A stretch of 63,226 nt of DNA, counting the filler, from Reclinomonas americana ATCC 50394 (lineage: Eukaryota): the NCBI GenBank assembly GCA_048213135.1. It is 14 parts of 14 records of this genome, joined end to end, with 100 filler letters (N's around TTAATTAATTAA, not from the genome) between each part and the next. Parts side by side here need not be neighbours in the genome. Positions count along the whole stretch, not along the records: positions 17,695 to 28,616 come from AFZH01022654.1; 13 more parts are not named here. One strand, 5' to 3'. Of the stretch, positions 17,595 to 29,287 are shown one piece after another. The position numbers were made by a program, and so were the translations under genes. Below the pieces are notes generated by a model, which was not told the DNA's origin, did not search any database, and worked only from the letters and a program-made list of their open reading frames with translations. The number at the start of each line of letters is the position of its first letter. Within the stretch, counting starts at the first letter, position 1.

Positions 17595-17805
17595 NNNNNN
17601 NNNNNNNNNNNNNNNNNNNNNNNNNNNNNNNNNNNNNNTTAATTAATTAANNNNNNNNNNNNNNNNNNNNNNNNNNNNNNNNNNNNNNNNNNNNGCTCAC
17701 TGCGTTTGCCCACTGCGTTTGCTCACTGCGTTCTGCTCACTGCGTTTGCTCACTGCATTTTCTCTGTACCCTGCTTTGCATTCTCTTCCCTGTGCCCTGT
17801 CTCAC

Positions 17806-20800
17806 CTGGAAGAATCCAATAAAGATCTCGCCGCGAACAAGCAACGTGCCGAGCCCAAACATGACCGCACGACGAAGTCGCAAAACGTGCTCGAGCATCG
17901 CCAATGCCGCTGCACATCAAGTTAAAAATGGAGCGAGTGACAACGACACTTCGTCTCACACATCTCACCAACTGCAGTATGCGACTGTTCCACGTGCGAG
18001 TATGACATGGTTGGCTGCGCGTACACTGTGCCTGCTACAGATGCGCCACGCATGACAGCCGCCTGTGATGCAAGGAGTGAACATCTCATTGACACGCTTC
18101 TTGCGTGTAGAGGTGGACGCAACACCCATTTCACCGCCGACACGGTCTTCGGTTTCGATAAGACTACGCAGTGTTAGTCGCGTGTCCTTGCTTCTCTTGC
18201 AATACTCGTTCCACAGTGTCAGTGCGTTGTTCCTACGAAGAGAGAATAGTGAGACGCATGATCGCCGATGACATTTAGCGCACAACGCAACGTCTCTTCA
18301 TCGTCAATCATCTCGCCGTCCAGTTCCAACAGTGTCGGCAACTGACTGATGAGCAGCAGGCGGAACTCGGGCAATGTGTCGGCGACAAAGTTGCCTTGGC
18401 GGATCTACAGGAGCAAGTGGTGAGAACACACACGAGCTTCTTTCTCTCTCACATCCTTCCACTCACCCACAGACGACGCGGACCAGCACGGTCACGCGCG
18501 TACTCCTCGGTGAGTTCGCCAAGGGCCATCATCAGTGGCCAGAAGTGCGCCAGCTGCAGCTGGTGGTTGCGCAGGTCAACGTCGGTGACGTCGTTCGGAC
18601 CGATGCCGAATTTGGAGAGGTAGTCGAGGGCCTCCCATTGGTCGTCGGTGTACGGCTTCGGGTTGAGAATCTCGTCGCATTTTTCGAGGGCGCGGAGGCG
18701 GCGGAACACCGCGCTGCGGAGAGGGGAGAAGGGAGGAGAAGAGTGAGGAGAAGGGAGGAGAAGGGAGGGGAAGAGAGGGGAAGTTAGGGGAAGAGTGAGG
18801 AGAAGGGAGGAGAAGGGAGGAGAAGGGAGGAGAAGGGAGGAGAAGGGAGGAGAAGGGAGGAGAAGGGAGAAGAGGGAGAGGAAGAGGAGAGGAGAGGAGA
18901 GGAGAGGAGAGGAGAAGCAAGGAGAAGCAATGAGAAGCAAGGAGAAGCAAGGAGAAGCAAGGAGAAACAAGGAGAAGCAAGGAGACGCAAGGAGAAGCAA
19001 GAGGAGGCAAGGAAACCAGTCTCAGAGCTTCCTCTTCTCTCATTCTTCTTCATCACGAAACTTGCTGTATGATCGAGCTTCTCGCAGACACTCTGTTTCT
19101 GGACAGTGCGCCCACAGCTCGCGTAGCTCGTGGCACTTTTGCAGCGGAATGGTAACTGCTTCGATGGAGGTGAAGCGATTGCGGTCGACGGCCAAACCGC
19201 GCAGTTTTGGCAGTTGGTCGAAGCCTTGGCCCTGTATGGAAAGATAGGGAGTGAGCAAGGGAATTCAAGAAAAATGTGAGTGAAGAGAAGGAACGGGCAA
19301 GAGATGAGAGTAAGAGGACCATGCAGGACACGCACACACGCAGAGAGGTGAGAGTGGAGAGCGAAGAACCAAGTGAAAGGGAAAGAGGAGATAAATGTAG
19401 AAAACAACGCATGAGGCATCAGTGAAGCTGGAGCAAGAGCGAATTGAGAAGAGTGTGAAAGGAGAATGGGGAGATGCTGAGAGAAGACAGCGGGAGAAGA
19501 GAAGAGAGCGGAACGGGAGAATACAACGTGACGAGAGAAGAGAGTGAGATTGGTGAGAAAAATGATGACGGTCAGTGCTTGATGTTAAGGGTCAAGGGAA
19601 TAAAGTGACAGAAAGGAAAAATGGCACACGGAGTGAAGCAAGTGAGGACGGAGTGAAGCAAGTGAGAGGTGGAGAAACGAGTGGAAAGAAAAGAACGGAG
19701 GCCAGAAAACGAAGAAAGAGATTGAAGAGAGCTTCTGCTCTGTTCAGATCACCTCCAGTGTCGTCAAGTGATTGTTCGACAAATCCAAATACACCAGTGA
19801 CGTGAAGCTGGCAATACCGACCGCGCTCTGCATCTCGTAACCTGACATGCGTGCCGACTGCGATACCAATGCGTGTCAGTGCAAGGACATGCCTCACTCA
19901 CACAACGGAAACGCAACGTCGGTATCCAGAGTGATTCCGTTCTGGTACTTGATGGTTTCAAAGCGCAGCTCCTCCACCAACTCGGCAGTGGCTCCTCGGC
20001 GCAGCTTCGTCGCAGCACACTGCATTAATGAGGAGGAAGAAAGCACATACAACAGTAAGTGAAAAGAGAACAAGCGTGTGCGACTCAGCGAGAAAAAGAG
20101 AAACGAATAGGAACACAGATTGCACCGCGTGAAAGAAATGAAAAAGGTCCACTTTGCATCTCGGAGAGAAAGAGAATGCGGATTCATATCACTCTCGCCT
20201 GCACGCGATTCCAGTGGGAATCACGCTGGTCCTTCACCCAATGACAGTGGCGAAAGCGGAAAAATACACAAAAAGATATGATAATCAATCTGCATCCTCG
20301 CTTCCCTTCCATTCTCAGCTCCTCTCTCAAACAGAAGAGTGATGAGATCTCCACTCTTTCAACCCCTCTCCTCTTCAGCACGCAACCCGCAGTGGAATCG
20401 TCACTGGCTCATGGTTCAGGACGGCAAACGGCGACGACGGACGGAGAATGGCGTCGAGACCACGCAAGAACAAAAGAAGGCCGCGCAATCCGAGGCGCGA
20501 CTTGAAACACCGATTGCCTCTCACATTGAGGTTCTGTGGATGACATGAGAAAGAGAGTACAGAAGGGTGGTGCTCTGCAAGTAACGCAACTCTCAGCTCA
20601 AACAGCTTGTTCGCCACGCGCCACACAGCGTCGGCATTGACAATGCGATTGAATGACAGATCGAGAAGCTCGAGATGAACACATAGATCGAGACTGGCGA
20701 CTGCATGCACAAACATCTCATCAGCTTTTCGGCAGTTTTCACCAAGGATCACAGCGCACGACGCAACATTCGAGTGATGTCGATGTGATGAGATTGTGCG

Positions 20801-23800
20801 ACAAGTTGAGTTGACGGAGGGCGCGAAAATCGGTAAAGTTGAGCCACTCCAGGCTGCAGCGCTTCAGGTTGAGCGTTTGCACGGTGGAGAGATCGGTTTG
20901 TGGTGCGTCCTCCGAGGCGTTGAGCTGATGAGAGGAAAGGAGGGAAAAGGGGGGGGGGAAATGAGTCTCAACTGACTCCATCACAGTCATCAACTTCTTC
21001 AATCGGATCTCATTCAATATCTTATTCTCACTGCGGCGCCTTTCTTCCCCCACTCTTCCTCTCACTCAATCCTGAGTCCAACAATTGATTGCTCACTCAC
21101 TTCCTTGTCTTCTCACAAGTCGTCCGTAACTCTCAGCACTCTTCCTCTCATTCAATCAGTACTGAGTTATTGAAGGAGTTACCTTCAATTCAGCCTCTTT
21201 ACACAGTGTCACTCAAATATCCAACGCTTCTCTCACACTCACATAAACCTGAATAAACAATCACATCGATTCAATTCAGCGGTCCATGTCGTCATTCTTG
21301 CTTCCGCCACTCTTTCTCTCACTCAATCCTACTTCCACAACGATGTTGCTCTCAGTCAGACACTCACTCTGCACTTCCCTGTTTCTCACAAGTCACCGTA
21401 ACTCTCAGCACTTTTTCTCCCTCGCTACGTCAACTGCACACACTCTCTCAGTCGATGTACTTCTTTCCAGGCGCTAACCACTCGTGCCCTGTGACATTGA
21501 GTCCTTTGTTTCATGTCGCCTCCTCTCTCATCATGCTGAGGATGAGCGTGGGGGTGCGCGCGAAGACAAACTTTGCACTCAGTTTCTCCTCGTCGTCCTC
21601 GCCAGACGTCACTGCAGCCTTCTCTCTTTCTCCACGCTCCCCCCCCATCCCCCTCGTTACCCCGCCCTTTCCCTCTATCCCCCTCTCTAATCATCCTTTC
21701 CCTCTATCTTTCTCTCTCTACTCCTTTCCCTCTATCCCCCCTCTCTACTCCCCCCTCTCTACTCATCCTTTCCCTCCATCCCCCCTCTCTACTCATCCTT
21801 TCCCTCCATCCCCCCTCTCTACTCATCCTTTCCCTCCATCCCCCCTGTCTACTCATCCTTTCCCTCCATCCCCCCTGTCTATTCACCCTTTCCCTCCATC
21901 CCCCCTCCCTACCCACCCTCTCCCCTCCCCCTCTCCCTTCCCCTCTACTCACCAATCGAAACACCGTGGCATTGAAGCGAAACTTCTCCGCATCCGACTT
22001 GTTGTTGGCTTGCATCACCCGCGCCAACTCATCCAACGTAATGTCCTCTTCGTCGATGCGATACAGCGGGCACTGCATCTGACTCAACTGCGGCAGCGAC
22101 TCGAGCAGGCGCACGCGGTAGTCCTTGAAGAGGTTGCCGCTGACGCCCAGCACCTCCAGCAGCGGCAGCATCTCGGCCAGCTGCACGATTTCGGCCATTT
22201 TGCGCAGTCGATTGTCGCGCAAATCGAGAGCGCGCAGGCGAGTGAGGGCATGCAGGCCGGTGGCCTGCAGCGTGGCCAGCTTGTTGCCGCGCAGCAGCAG
22301 CGTCTCCAGTGACACGAAACCGCTCAACTGAATCGTTTCCAGCCCTGCGCGACTCAGGTCGAGTTCGCGCACCGTCTCGAATGCCACCGCACCCGCGTGC
22401 GACACCAGTCGGCGCTGGAGGATGCAGCGGAAGCGGTAGTCGTTGGGGTTCTCTCGCGGCGCCGAGGAGCGCGCGGCAATCGACATTTTCTCCTCGATCG
22501 ACACTTGGTGGTCGACCACCACCAGGCTGCTGTCGACGCGCTGCAGCGAGGGGAGAAAGTTGAAGAGGCGGGTGCGCATCTTGTGCAGTGGGGTGGAGCA
22601 GGGGTTGCCGCGAAAGGCAAAGACGCGAATGTCGGGGAGGCTCTGGAGAAGGCGGCCGATTTCGGAGAGGGCGTCGCGGATCTCGTTGCTGCAGACGTCG
22701 AGGACGGCCAGGTGTTGGCATTGGTCGAGGTCGAGGACGAGGATGCTGGTGAGTTGGTTGTGCGAGAGGTCCAGGCGTTCCAGGTTGAAGAAGTCCCCAA
22801 AAGTCTACAAAGGGGAAGGGAAGGGATGAGGGGAAGGATGGGGAAAGGGGAAGGATGGAAAGGGGAAGGGTGGGGAAAGGGAAAGGTGGAGAGAGTGGAG
22901 AGAGTGGAGAGGGTGGAGAGGGTGGGGAGGGTGGGGAGGGTGGAGGGGGTGGAGAGGGTGGAGAGGGTGGAGAGAGTGGAGAGAGTGGAGAGGGTGGAGG
23001 GTGGAGAGGGTGGACAGAGCGGATAGAGTGGAGGAGTGGAGAGGGTGGATAATGGAGAGATTGGCGATGGCAAAGAGGGGAGAGTGGAGAGGGTGGAGAG
23101 GGCGGAGAGAGTGGAGAGGGCGAAGAGCGGAGAGGGCGGAAAGAGTGAAGAGAGTGGAGAGGGCGGAGGAGGTGGAGAGAGTGAAGAGAGTGAAGAGGGT
23201 GGAGAGGATGGAGAGAGTGGAGAGAGTGGACATCGTGTAAATATGGAGAGGATGGAGAGAGTGGTAACGGGTGAAAAAGGGTCGAGAAAATGAGAGGGTG
23301 GAGAGGGCGGAGAGGGTGGAGAGAATGAAGAGGGTGGAGAGGGTGGGGAGGGTGGAGAGGGAGGGTGGAGGAGGTGGAGGAGGTGGAGAGAGTGGAGAGT
23401 GGAGAGGGTGGAGAGGATGAAGATGGTGGACAGGGTGTATAGAGCGAAAAGAGTGGAGGAGTGGAGAGGGTGAAGAGAGTGGAGAGAGTGGAGAGAGTGG
23501 AGGAGTGGAGAGAATGAAGAGGGTGGAGAGGATGGAGAGAGTGGAGAGGATGGAGAGAGTGGAGGAGGTGGAGAGAGTGGAGAGAGTGGAGAGAGTGGAG
23601 AGAGTGGAGAGAGTGGAGAGAGTGGAGAGAGTGGAGAGGGGGGTACGGGTGAAAAGGGTCGACATAATGAGACGTTGAGAGGTCAAGAGGTGCGAAAGTG
23701 ATGTGATGGAGCTTGCAGATAAAAGGGGGAGAATGTAGAAAGTGGAGAGTGTAGACGAGGATAATACGATCACACAAGATTGATAACCGAAAGGTAAAGA

Positions 23801-26800
23801 GACTCAAGTTAATGGGGGATGTCCTCGACTTCTTTCTCTTTCTTTTCTTCGTCGTTGTCTTCTTCTTCCTCTGCTCTTCGCTTCCTCCTTTTGTCTTCCT
23901 TCTTATTCTGTTCGCCTTTCTCTTCCTGTTCGTAGTCTTCTTCAAAGAAAAAACACAGAGAGATGACTGAAACGCGCTTGAAGTGTCTTGTTGTCGTGAG
24001 TGACGCAACGCAAGAGCTGGTCAACTGGCAATTGCGCAACACCAGCTCCTTCACCATGGCGGCTTGGTATGGAGTGCCTGGTGCCACGAGACGTGGGTCG
24101 TAGAAACGTGATGGTCCCTGTTGAGCCAGACTGTGAGTGAGTGCGATGAACAGAGAAAGAGAATGCAATCGAAACGCAACGTCGACAATCTGCGACAACA
24201 CGTGCAGCTGAAGTCGGTACTTGTTCTGCTCGGTGGCCGTGTGGCCGTGGAGAGCCAGTGCCTGCACTCGCTCCTCGCACGTGACAATGACCTGCTCAAA
24301 AGAGGGATCAGCGGCATCAATATCTTTCTCTCGCTGTGACAAGCACGCACATTGTCGACGGCGCGCAGTTTCGGCAGCTGGAAGAGCAGGTTGGAGATGA
24401 CGCTGAGGCGGTACTCGGTCAGTGCCGCCTGCATCTTGCGGCTCTGCGAGGTGTAGTCGGTCGGGTTGGCGCACACCAGGAGGTGCTCGATGGCGGGACA
24501 CTGGGCGGCGTCGCCGACGACGCGAGGGAGGTGCAGGCGGGGGTTGCCCATGAGGTTGACGTAGCGGAGTCTGTGGGGGATGAGAGGGGAAAGGGGGGTG
24601 AGGGGAAGGGGGTGAGAGGGGAAGGGGGATAAAAGGGAAAGGGATGAGAGGGGAAAGGGAGAAAGGGCGTGAGGAAAAGGTGTGAGGAAAAGGGGGCGAA
24701 GAAAAGGAGGTGAGGAAGAGGGGGAAAAGGGCGTGAGGGAGAGAGAACGAGAGGACAAGACCACCAAGTGATAAGATGAATGCAGAGCGAGAAAGAATAA
24801 GGAGAACAGTAGAGAAAGAGAACACAATGAACAGAGAGGGACAAGGAGAGATGAGATGCACAAGAGATCAGAGAAGCGAACAGAAGAGCGCGACAAGCCA
24901 ACATATGTCACAGAGTGAGAGACATGCAGAGAGAGAAAAAGAAGAGAAGGACACAGCGAGATTAAACGAGCGCGAGCGAAGTGAGTGAAGCACAACGAGA
25001 CGAGAAGAACAAATGAAGAGAAGAAAAGAAAAGAGAAAGAAAGAGAAGACTGAAAGAGAGGATCACAGAAAGCAATGAGAAGAACACAAAAGGGAAGGGA
25101 AACAAACAATGCAACAAGACGAACGAAGCCACGACAAGAGAACAAATGAGAAGAGGAGCAACACAAGAGAAGAAATGAACGCAGGAAACTAAGAGAAGAA
25201 CCCGCAGAGAGAGAGGGAAGAGAAAGCCGCTGAATGGGATGAGATAACACAAAGAACGAGAGGAGAGCACGGAAGAGGAAGCGCAGACCACATAAAACGA
25301 AGAAAAGAACGCACTGAGAGAGAGGGAAGAAAAGGCCGCTGAGTGGGTTGCGATAACACATAAAACGAGAAGAGAGCACGAAAGAAAAAAAGCGAAGAAC
25401 ACAGAAAAGAAAGAAAAGAACGCACTGAGAGAGAGGGAAGAGAAGGCCGCATAGTGGGTTGAGATAACACAAAGAACGAGAGGAGAGCACGGACGAGGAA
25501 GCGCAGACCACAGAAAACGAAGAAAAGAACGCACAAAGAGAGAGGGCAGAGAAGTCCGCTGAGTGGGTTGAGATGACATATGGACCGACAAGAGAGCACG
25601 AGAGAAAAAGCGAAGAACGCACATATAGAGAGAGGAACATAGAAACCGAAGAAAAGAACGCACGAGAGAGGGAAAAGCCGCAGAATGGGATGAGATAACA
25701 CATGGAACGAGAGGAGAGCACGAAGGAATAAGAGAAGAACACAGAAAACGAATAAATAACACAGAAAGCTAAGAAACGAACACATCATACAAAGGGAAGA
25801 CCCCATGGGAAGAAAAGAAAAGAAAACGCACAAATCCCCCTTTTCCTCTTTCCTCTTTCCTCCTTTCCCTCCTTTCACCCTTCCCCCTCCTCACCTCTTG
25901 CACTGATGCATCCCCTGCACATGCCGCAAATTATTCTGACTCAAATCCAACAACTCCAACGCATGAAACTCCTCCACATCGGCAAACTCCAGCTGCTGCT
26001 GCACGAGTGCCAGTGTCTTGATGCGGCGCAACCAGCCCGGCGTGCGCACCTGCAAATGTCCGTAGAATCCAATCAAGGCAAACTCCCACCGCAACCGTTC
26101 CACTGCCGCGTGCGACTCCCGTCCTGGCGCGCTGGCCACGCGCATCTTGTCGCCGATCGACAACTCCAACCCGTCAAGTGTCACCAGTCCGGGCATGCGA
26201 TTGGAGCCAATGAGACGCATGGTGCGGTACACGACTTCGTCGCGCACATTGTCCGTGTTCAGCAGCGGGTTGCCGGCGATAAAGAGGTGGCGGAGGCGCG
26301 GAATCATGCCCAGCACTTTGAGGTTGTCCGCCGAGGCCTCAATGTCGTTGTGCGACAGGCGCAGGGTGGTGAGGTCGCCGCACTTTTCCAGTCCGGCACC
26401 GGCGAGACGCTTGATGCGATTGTGTGAGAGGTCGAGGCGTTGGAGGCTGGTGAAGGAGGGGACGTGGAACTCGGTGAGTTGGGCGTGGGTGAGGGTGAGT
26501 TCGACCACCAGTTCTGGGCGCCACACCACCATGCGTAACGGGAGGGAGTTAAGGGGGAGGGTGGGAGGGATGAGGAGAGGGGAGGGCGGAGGGATGAGGG
26601 TGAGAAAAAAAGGATATCTGAGGCTTGGAGAAAGTTGGAGACGGCCAGGTCCCAGCGGATGAAGCCGAGGTAGGGGCGGTAGGGGGAGTCGTGTTTGCGG
26701 ATGGCGGTGCACTGCGGGGATGGGGAAGGGGGTGAGGGGGTGAGTGGGGAAGGGCGATGAGGGAGAAGGGTGATGAGAGAGAAATGGGATGGAGAATGGA

Positions 26801-28260
26801 GAAGGGATAAGGGGAAGGGATAAGGGGAAGGGATAAGGGGAAGGGATAAGGGGAAGGGAGAAGGGGAAGGGATAAGGGGAAGGGATAAGGGGAAGGGAGA
26901 AGGGGAAGGGAGAAGGGGAAGGGAGAAGGGGAAGGGAGAAGGGGAAGGGAGAAGGGGAAGGGAGAAGGGGAAGATGAGTGATTGTGTTGCTTCTTCTTGA
27001 GTCCCTTCTGTATTTTGATATTGCATTCTGCGTCTTCTGCTCATTTGCTGCCTGTTTTCTTTTCCTCGTCTGATCTTCGTCTCTTTCTCGTGTCAGTCGA
27101 CAACTTTACTGTCTCTGTGTTTGACTCTCACTCTCATTCTTTCTTTGCCTCTGCTTCTGCTGTTGCTCTTTTTCTCGTCTCCTCATGCGATGTCTTCATT
27201 CGAAGTCTTTGCATCTGCCGCTAACACTATATCTGGCTTCATGTCTTATTCCTTGTCTGTGCTTTCTCCTCTTTTCCTGTCACTCTACGTCTCTTGCTGA
27301 GCGTCTCTCTGTCTATGAATCGTTTTCTGATACTTTGCAATGCGAAGAAGAGAGAAGCATTACGGAGAAGAGAGCACGAGGAAGAGCAATAAGAAATGAA
27401 AAGAGCGGTGTGGAAGAAGTGGACAGCGAGAAATAAGTGAGCAGCAACAAAGAGAAGAGCGAAAGAATTAGAGTACAATTAGAAAGAGAAGAGCATTGAA
27501 GAAGAGGAAAGACAAGAGTGAATGGGAAGAAGAATTGTAGGAATGAGAGACCACTGACGAAGAGCACAGAAATCGTCGGTTCTGAGTATGAACCTTGATT
27601 CTGGTATTGAGTAGATGACGAGTAGAGACCAAACGAATATTCCTTGCTTTTTCGTTTGTTGCTGTGGCACGCCAGAGAGCCTATCTGAGAAAAGAGGACT
27701 AATAATATTACATGCGTCTCTTCTTTCCCTTGCCCTCTCCCTGTCCCTCTTTCCTCGCTTCCCCTTGCCTCTCCCTCTCCCTCATTTCTCCCTTTTCCTC
27801 ATTTCTCCCTGTCCCTCTTTCCTCCCCTCCCCCTCCCCCACACCTTCTCATCCACCGTGGCGGTCTCATTGTTGATCTGCCGAATGTACGGGTTGGCGGC
27901 TACCACCTTTTGCACGAAATTGTCCACATCGCACACGCGATTGCTGTGCACGTCGAGGAACTCGAGGCGCGGGCAGTTGCGCGCAAAGACGGCGCACTTG
28001 TCGACCGACTTGATGCGATTGTCGGAGAGGTTGGCGTAGCGCAGTTGGGGGAGTTGGATGGCGTCGACCTCGCTGAGTCCCACGTTGCGCACGATGAGCA
28101 CCTCGAGGAGGGTGTACATGTTGAGGCGGTTGATAAAGTCGCGCTGGGTGTGGTCTCGGGAGAACATGAAATGGTCCATGTAGACGTAGCGGATGGTGGT
28201 GGGGGTGGTGCATTGGAAGAAGAGGTCGGGGTTGTTTTCGATGCGTTCGTTGCGGCGGTA
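17806..28260 (-). CDS. Very large SDS22-like LRR protein with repeated LRR + LRR-cap modules, entering a transmembrane region at the contig end
   Basis: About 17 exons with LRRs (LRYANLSDNRI, LQRLDLSHNRI, LETLLLRGNKL, LELLDLSFNRI) and repeated cap motifs (YRVRLLESLPQL...IDEEDITLDE; FRLLLISQLPTLLELDGEMIDDEE). Last exon ends ...GEIFIGFFQ. Confidence 0.85.
21700..21915. repeat. 30-nt intronic minisatellite ACTCATCCTTTCCCTCCATCCCCCCTCTCT
   Basis: About 6 near-perfect copies. Confidence 0.9.
22880..23640. repeat. 9-nt intronic satellite GGAGAGAGT/GGAGAGGGT
   Basis: Dozens of degenerate copies in the intron 22804-24009. Confidence 0.9.
25200..25745. repeat. ~110-nt degenerate intronic tandem repeat
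   Basis: Recurrent CCGC...TGGG.TGAGATAACAC...GAGAGCACG...GAAAAGAACGCAC units, about 5 copies. Confidence 0.75.
26535..26617 (-). other. U12-type (minor spliceosome) AT-AC intron, 83 nt
   Basis: Sense strand reads TCA G|ATATCCTTTTTT...CCCCTTAAC-TCCCTCCCGTTAC|GC ATG: canonical ATATCCTT donor, CCTTAAC branch site about 13 nt from the end, AC acceptor. Removal joins FLQAS-G-MVVWRPEL in frame. Confidence 0.93.
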
Positions 28261-28521
28261 CTGCGCGGGAGGGGAAGGGTGGAAGGAGGGGAAGGGTGAG
28301 GGGAAGGGTGGAAGGGAGGAATGGAGGAAGGGAAGACGGGTGGACGGGAGGATGGGAGGATGGGAGAGGGAGGATGGGGAGAGGGAGGATGGGAGAGGGA
28401 GGATGGGAGAGGGAGGATGGGAGAGAGGGAGGAAGAGATAGAGGAAGAGATAGAGGAAGAGATAGAGGAAGAGATAGAGGAAGAGAGAGAGAGAGGAGTG
28501 GGAGGTAAAGAGAGGAAGAGA

Positions 28522-28616
<95 letters not shown>

Positions 28617-29287
28617 NNNNNNNNNNNNNNNNNNNNNNNNNNNNNNNNNNNNNNNNNNNNTTAATTAATTAANNNNNNNNNNNNNNNNNNNNNNNNNNNN
28701 NNNNNNNNNNNNNNNNGACGACGTGACGAGAGACGAGAGAGGAGAGGAGAGGAGAGGAGAAAAGAGGAGAGGAGATGAGACGGGATGAGACGGGAGGAGA
28801 AGAGAGGGGAAGAGATGGGAAAAGAGATGAAAAGAGATGAGAAGATGGGAGAAGAGAGAGAGAGAGATGAGAAGAGAGGAGAAGAGAGGAGAAGAGAGGA
28901 AAAGAGATGAGAAGAGATGAGAAGAGATGAGAAGATACGAGAAGATGGGAGAAGATGGGAGAAGATGGGAGAAAAGAGAGAGATGAGAAGAGAGGAGAAG
29001 AAAAAGAGAAAAGAGAAAAAGAGAAAGGAGAAGAAGAGGAAACAAGAGGAAATAAAAGACGAGAAAAGAGAATAGAAGAGTGGTGAAGTGAAGAGGAAAG
29101 GGATGAAATAAGAAGAGAAGGCAAGGAGAGACGAGAAGAGAAGAGATGCGGCGAAAGAAGGAAACAAGAGAGCAGATGAGAGGGATAATCGGAAAAGCTG
29201 GAAGGTCAACAGAGAACGCAAAAACATCTCGTCACTCGCAACAGAGAGATTAGGATAAAAGGAAAGAAGCACAATCGTCGGCGCAAC

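Follow-up and report, generated by a model that had tools for sequence, protein, structure and literature searches.

AT-AC introns make up 24-26% of the minor introns of human (PMC3584512; PMC8280824) and 77% (196 of 253) of those of Blastocystis sp. subtype 1 (PMC10639083). Physarum polycephalum carries more than 20,000 minor introns, which are mostly of the GT form, have an altered branch motif, and bear a transposon-like signature (10.1101/2020.10.12.336362). Discoba and alveolates are among the lineages reported to be without minor introns. In human cells, CENATAC chiefly serves AT-AN introns (PMC8280824), and the vertebrate CENATAC gene itself holds, in intron 5, competing major and minor donors with a minor-type branch motif and one acceptor, the minor path being non-productive (PMC8280824). 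For plant CENATAC, a retained-intron version of autoregulation is described in a preprint legend.

Here, we describe a predicted minor intron in a window of 63,226 nucleotides (the whole stretch of DNA that was analysed) from Reclinomonas americana ATCC 50394. The window is made up of 14 contigs, set apart by N runs that enclose a 12-base linker (13 spacers, e.g. 28617-28716), and adjoining pieces are not true neighbours; positions 17695-28616 are one contig (AFZH01022654.1, index C7187). The segment from 26617 to 26535 on the minus strand (83 nt) is very probably a U12-type AT-AC intron that lies in an old multi-module LRR gene and would be removed by a retained minor spliceosome. By itself, it is a further member of a known intron class, and a protist with one such intron is nothing unusual; a near-pure AT-AC set together with the layout of the CENATAC gene makes the system a variant of known minor splicing. 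As a whole, the data are best explained, with good confidence, by surviving AT-AC introns, one of them in an old LRR gene, along with retained machinery and a decoy donor in CENATAC.

The introns described here resemble known U12-type AT-AC introns in donor, branch motif, branch spacing, AC end, and avoidance of phase 0, and U11, U6atac, CENATAC, and TXNL4B of the U12-type system are present here too (PMC3584512; PMC8280824). Blastocystis is likewise a protist with many, mostly AT-AC minor introns (PMC10639083). In Physarum, too, minor splicing works in a microbial eukaryote (10.1101/2020.10.12.336362), as is predicted here.

The predicted intron and its LRR host gene

The features of the locus, in the direction of transcription, are as follows.

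27844..28260, minus strand: upstream LRR exon (frame test)
26712..27843, minus strand: major GT-AG intron, 1132 nt, phase 0
26618..26711, minus strand: exon upstream of the minor intron, 94 nt (aligns to the linker of 8 homologs)
26535..26617, minus strand: predicted U12-type AT-AC intron, 83 nt, phase 1 (signals, junction scoring, homolog alignment)
26609..26617, minus strand: U12-type 5′ splice site ATATCCTTT (motif match to RTATCCTT; bases +5 onward pair with the 5′ end of this genome's U11)
26548..26556, minus strand: U12-type branch motif CCCCTTAAC (motif match, CCTTAAC; predicted branch A at 26549)
26535..26537, minus strand: 3′ splice site TAC (motif and junction scoring)
25895..26534, minus strand: exon downstream of the minor intron, an LRR module (homolog search)
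24571..25894, minus strand: major GT-AG intron, 1324 nt, phase 2
24351..24570, minus strand: next LRR exon
21956..22804, minus strand: further LRR exon (later exons continue toward 17800, not traced to the base)

The contig ends at 28616 and so cuts off the 5′ portion of the gene. All of the signals that the initial annotation had listed for an 83-nt AT-AC intron (donor, branch site at 26548-26556, and TAC acceptor) are present, on the minus strand, which it had left unstated. The predicted branch A is base 15 counted from the 3′ end of the intron, and 13 bases follow the branch motif, the last three being TAC (26537-26535). The pair RTATCCTT plus CCTTRAC occurs once in the whole window, at this intron, against 0.011 pairs expected under a third-order Markov model of the window, an expectation counted before an AC end or a restored frame is required. 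U2-type AT-AC introns carry a G at position +5 of the donor and lack the U12 branch motif (PMC2831892); the intron here has C at that position and a complete U12 branch motif. The locus is present a second time (L186) at 98% identity; there, too, the intron is 83 bases long, and its three internal differences leave the signals unaltered.

Translation and homology agree with the earlier claims that removal of the intron joins two reading frames and that no suitable GT-AG alternative is seen. Across the exons 28260-27844, 26711-26618, and 26534 onward, splicing out the intron leaves 0 stops over 381 codons, whereas retaining it gives 5. Among donor-acceptor pairs whose ends are GT/GC-AG, AT-AC, or of a related kind, 158 leave no stop. 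Scored against P0002 (1733 aa, 38% identity), the one full-coverage homolog found with the downstream exon, the AT-AC junction is the highest of these (506), the best GC-AG junction reaching 483 and the best GT-AG junction 432. It was also the best of seven models (six alternatives) in 7 of 8 homologs, and the alignments to 6 of the 8 show no gap at the junction. It is very improbable that the transcript uses another junction, such as GC-AG 26587-26514, with the U12 signals being incidental. That junction is free of stops and slightly ahead in the one exception, a distant homolog (298 vs 293 for the AT-AC junction), but it scores lower in the other seven; its donor sits in a low-complexity C-rich tract and fits no donor consensus, and the donor and branch pair is hardly expected by chance in the window. 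The alignment alone does not fix the exact splice base, since sliding both ends still scores 500-506; it is the splice signals that fix it.

With P0002 as the query, E was 1e-20 or better for 8 of the 8000 candidates that were scored, among them full-length proteins of Balamuthia mandrillaris, Acytostelium subglobosum, and Trichomonas vaginalis. The LRR protein of the window is 24-36% identical to the 8 homologs over the region, and the host family is old; the view that the gene is lineage-specific is not supported. An Atlas search with the LRR protein returned generic LRR clusters only, and no genomic relative of the gene was found in the metagenome contigs searched.

Components of the minor spliceosome

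A retained minor spliceosome, as the initial annotation had proposed, is indicated by U11 and U6atac above the Rfam cut-offs and by CENATAC and TXNL4B genes. Among the snRNAs it had named, U11 (51.2 and 51.1 bits; cut-off 39) and U6atac (37.8 and 34.9 bits; cut-off 33) were each recovered in two copies, whereas U12 was found neither by Rfam nor by patterns. Over the genome, the U6atac core pattern matched only the two U6atac copies, three ordinary U6 copies, and two chance sites. In both U6atac copies (L001 and L002, 1501-1632), the stretch that would pair with the donor is CCGA rather than AGGA, and the 3′ stem-loop is without the loop of the Rfam consensus. The same CCGA characterizes the published U6atac "CC variant" of Acanthamoeba, Physarum, oomycetes, and cnidarians (PMC2396436), in which it is preceded by G or U rather than by A as here. 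A reading of this U6atac (CC at positions 13-14) as new, or as serving donors of the GTTGCG type described below, was rejected, the variant being in print for many lineages.

CENATAC is present in two copies, with the CCDC84 family over its cut-off and the remaining motifs identified by eye. A TXNL4B-type exon matches TXNL4B at E 4.5e-21 vs 3.3e-4 for TXNL4A, and the genome carries both genes. The TXNL4A exons lie on opposite strands flanking a gap (L190 and L193, contig C85), which is probably a scaffolding inversion. The motif CCCACAA is common to U6atac, U11, and U6, about 65-70 bases upstream of each RNA (L001, L003, L114), and is a probable snRNA promoter element.

For U12, Rfam scoring of 42 of 1907 candidates from the 16,441-contig assembly gave nothing, and five patterns yielded 15, 9, 13, 33, and 18 matches vs 27, 9, 6, 26, and 8 in the controls; none of these matches was convincing by eye, nor did an Rfam scan of part of them find any. 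Possible U4atac genes occur as three tandem candidate copies about 1.35 kb apart (L132:156, L132:1501, and L132:2876; contig C280, 86.5-89.3 kb), about 17 kb from the TXNL4B gene. The U4atac candidate folds with U6atac, although the pairing does not exceed that of motif-fixed shuffles (798/2000; 817/3000), and it has no Rfam match. Exon-by-exon searches of low power gave no match to the U11-48K zinc finger, U11-25K, or CRIPT families.

By analogy with the human pathway (PMC3584512), U11 would pair with donor bases +5 onward, U12 would pair with the branch motif and bulge A26549, and a U4atac/U6atac.U5 particle with CENATAC and TXNL4B would activate the donor. If the major spliceosome, or a hybrid in which U2 stands in for U12, cut at the same ends, this would accord with the failure of Rfam and the five patterns to find a U12 snRNA. 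Such an arrangement is nevertheless improbable, because about 150 genome matches keep both strict minor signals, because U11, U6atac, CENATAC, and TXNL4B are all retained, and because the U12 search covered only the share of candidates given above in an assembly of many contigs.

Extent and age of the AT-AC set

The assembly (108 Mb) includes bacterial contigs, and many of its loci are present twice. A strict pattern, RTATCCTT followed 20-120 nt on by CCTTRAC, matched 168 times vs 15 for the reversed pattern used as control; the AT form accounted for 159 matches vs 7, and the GT form for 9 vs 8. When the branch motif was relaxed and gaps of as much as 200 nt were allowed, the figures were 174 vs 20 for AT and 42 vs 41 for GT. 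Genome-wide, the pattern matches number about 150, or about 80 loci if each was assembled twice. A count of donors alone (419 vs 90 in the control) is too high owing to bacterial contigs C1 and C2. By eye, 5 strict GT matches and up to 4 further ones are intron-like, and AT-AC introns therefore constitute about 94-97% of the minor introns. Since the count required strict motifs no more than 200 nt apart from donor to branch, it misses GT-AG minor introns whose donors are looser or whose interiors are long; the true share is likely to exceed 85%. The estimate is above the highest share found in the literature searched (that of Blastocystis), though the per-species tables of PMC10639083 could hold higher values. 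The difference from Blastocystis is significant (Fisher P 2e-6; 5e-4 with counts halved for double assembly), with the reservation that the counting methods differ. Of 62 candidates, 57 have CCTTGAC as their branch motif, the intron at 26535-26617 being among the few with CCTTAAC, and Pfam domains continue across the AT-AC junction in TBC, CK2-beta, TERT, and UDPGP genes.

In the telomerase reverse transcriptase gene, an AT-AC minor intron splits the RNA-binding domain (L085 near 1000); TERT is absent from the human list searched. One ion-channel gene appears to carry two minor introns separated by 3.2 kb, one AT-AC and the other GT-AG, and a two-pore-channel-like gene holds two AT-AC introns (both among L045, L046, and L201). 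Gene finders restricted to GT-AG introns would fail on some 80 genes in this genome, telomerase among them.

For phase and length, 64 candidates were examined from 100 listed strict matches after removal of second copies and one bacterial match, and 5 more were added later. The 56 that passed an automatic phase filter, a set still holding a few false candidates, show phases 1:2:0 of 29:18:9. Phase 0 (9 of 56) is rarer than among major introns (44%, P 1e-5) and resembles the level among minor introns (22%, P 0.34). The introns are uniform in length, most of them measuring 68-102 nt, whereas those of Blastocystis are about 42 bp long and lie in phase 0 in 49% of cases (PMC10639083). An all-against-all comparison of 62 pyrimidine-rich interiors gave only one match, of 12 nt. 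Set against Physarum, the genome holds about 150 matches (strict donors only), whose branch motif is canonical and whose interiors have no sequence in common, and the marks of Physarum-type gain were not seen.

The positions of thirty AT-AC loci were checked against two lists of human minor introns from PMC8280824 (206 and 516 rows). Host names have Pfam support for 11 of these loci and are provisional, read from the translated flanks, for the rest. Within those lists, three loci match human minor-intron positions in phase and flanking codons and 27 do not. A calcium-channel intron is at the position of the AT-AC intron in human CACNA1G/H/I; a SAC1-family intron is GT-AG in human SACM1L but AT-AC here; and a POLE2-like intron is AT-AC in both, the host name and the wider human context being provisional. 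Short exons of the POLE2-like, SAC1-like, and CENATAC genes found no useful match in the PDB. For a kinase intron (L061), correspondence to a minor intron of human MAPK14 or CDK5 was considered and then rejected after comparison with the human list.

Because three positions are common with human, some minor-intron positions are ancient; the absence of a human minor intron at the other 27 fits gain as well as loss. It is conceivable, though we judge it unlikely, that the intron at 26535-26617 is U12-type but was gained in this lineage along with most of the AT-AC introns, perhaps by an AT-AC-specific route. Those 27 loci would agree with this, as would the uniform lengths and the presence, among the hosts of AT-AC introns, of an Indigoidine_A-family gene and of a putative NagB-like gene; minor-intron gain is, moreover, documented in Physarum and has been raised for Blastocystis. 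The recent U12 gain suggested by the initial annotation nevertheless finds no positive support: phase 0 is far scarcer than in Blastocystis, the interiors share nothing beyond the single short match, three positions are common to human minor introns, and the host LRR family is old. A recent burst of minor-intron gain is not supported, nothing in the sequence pointing to it.

The most likely cause of the AT-AC excess, which we favour with some reserve, is that old minor introns were lost or converted unevenly. AT-AC introns would remain because a point change turns GT-AG minor introns into major ones but does not easily do so for AT-AC introns, a conversion bias described in PMC2831892. A set that is about 95% AT-AC resembles the end state predicted on this basis, in which GT-AG minor introns convert and AT-AC introns remain. 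The excess also bears on the question whether there is a mechanistic difference between the two subtypes and on the reason why CENATAC is kept.

Two further observations concern the assembly itself. Bacterial contigs C1 and C2 are both of megabase size. In addition, cox1 is represented by two bacterial copies and one stray 597-base fragment (L189), no mitochondrial cox1 of the organism and no mitochondrial genome having been found in the assembly, while a cytochrome c1 gene is present. A DIMT1 exon gave named matches at up to about 72% identity but clustered solely with two unnamed proteins.

Predicted competing donors in the CENATAC gene

In both CENATAC copies (L145 and L146; contigs C136 and C174; minus strand, about L145 1835-1972), a major-type donor is followed 20 nt on by GTATCCTTTT. 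The two competing donors share an AG acceptor, and 36-37 nt before it stands a branch-like motif that has one mismatch. In both copies, the major path continues in frame through the C-terminal motifs, whereas the minor path shifts the frame, meets an early stop, and loses those motifs. On balance, CENATAC is probably in a negative feedback by way of a minor-type decoy donor in its own gene. The layout is the same as that of vertebrate CENATAC (PMC8280824), but it apparently occupies a later intron than vertebrate intron 5, and it may therefore be convergent. No earlier report of such a feedback layout in a protist was found in the literature searched. The presence of the layout outside animals and plants would carry the circuit to another eukaryotic branch.

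A more speculative proposal, which we hold to be doubtful, is that the minor spliceosome works almost solely for AT-AC introns (about 95%), while one of its few GT-type minor donors acts as a feedback sensor in CENATAC, an AT-AC-promoting factor. In its boldest form, the AT-AC set would still be growing, by gain or by GT-to-AT switching (compare the SAC1-family intron). Should the set still be growing, the organism would be a natural test of why two minor subtypes exist, and the feedback on CENATAC would be either ancient or a product of repeated evolution.

Donors of the GTTGCG or GTGCG type recur both in the CENATAC gene (L145) and in the LRR gene (window regions 24282, 20768, and 19916, minus strand), and GTTGCG occurs 92 times in the window vs 46 for its reverse.
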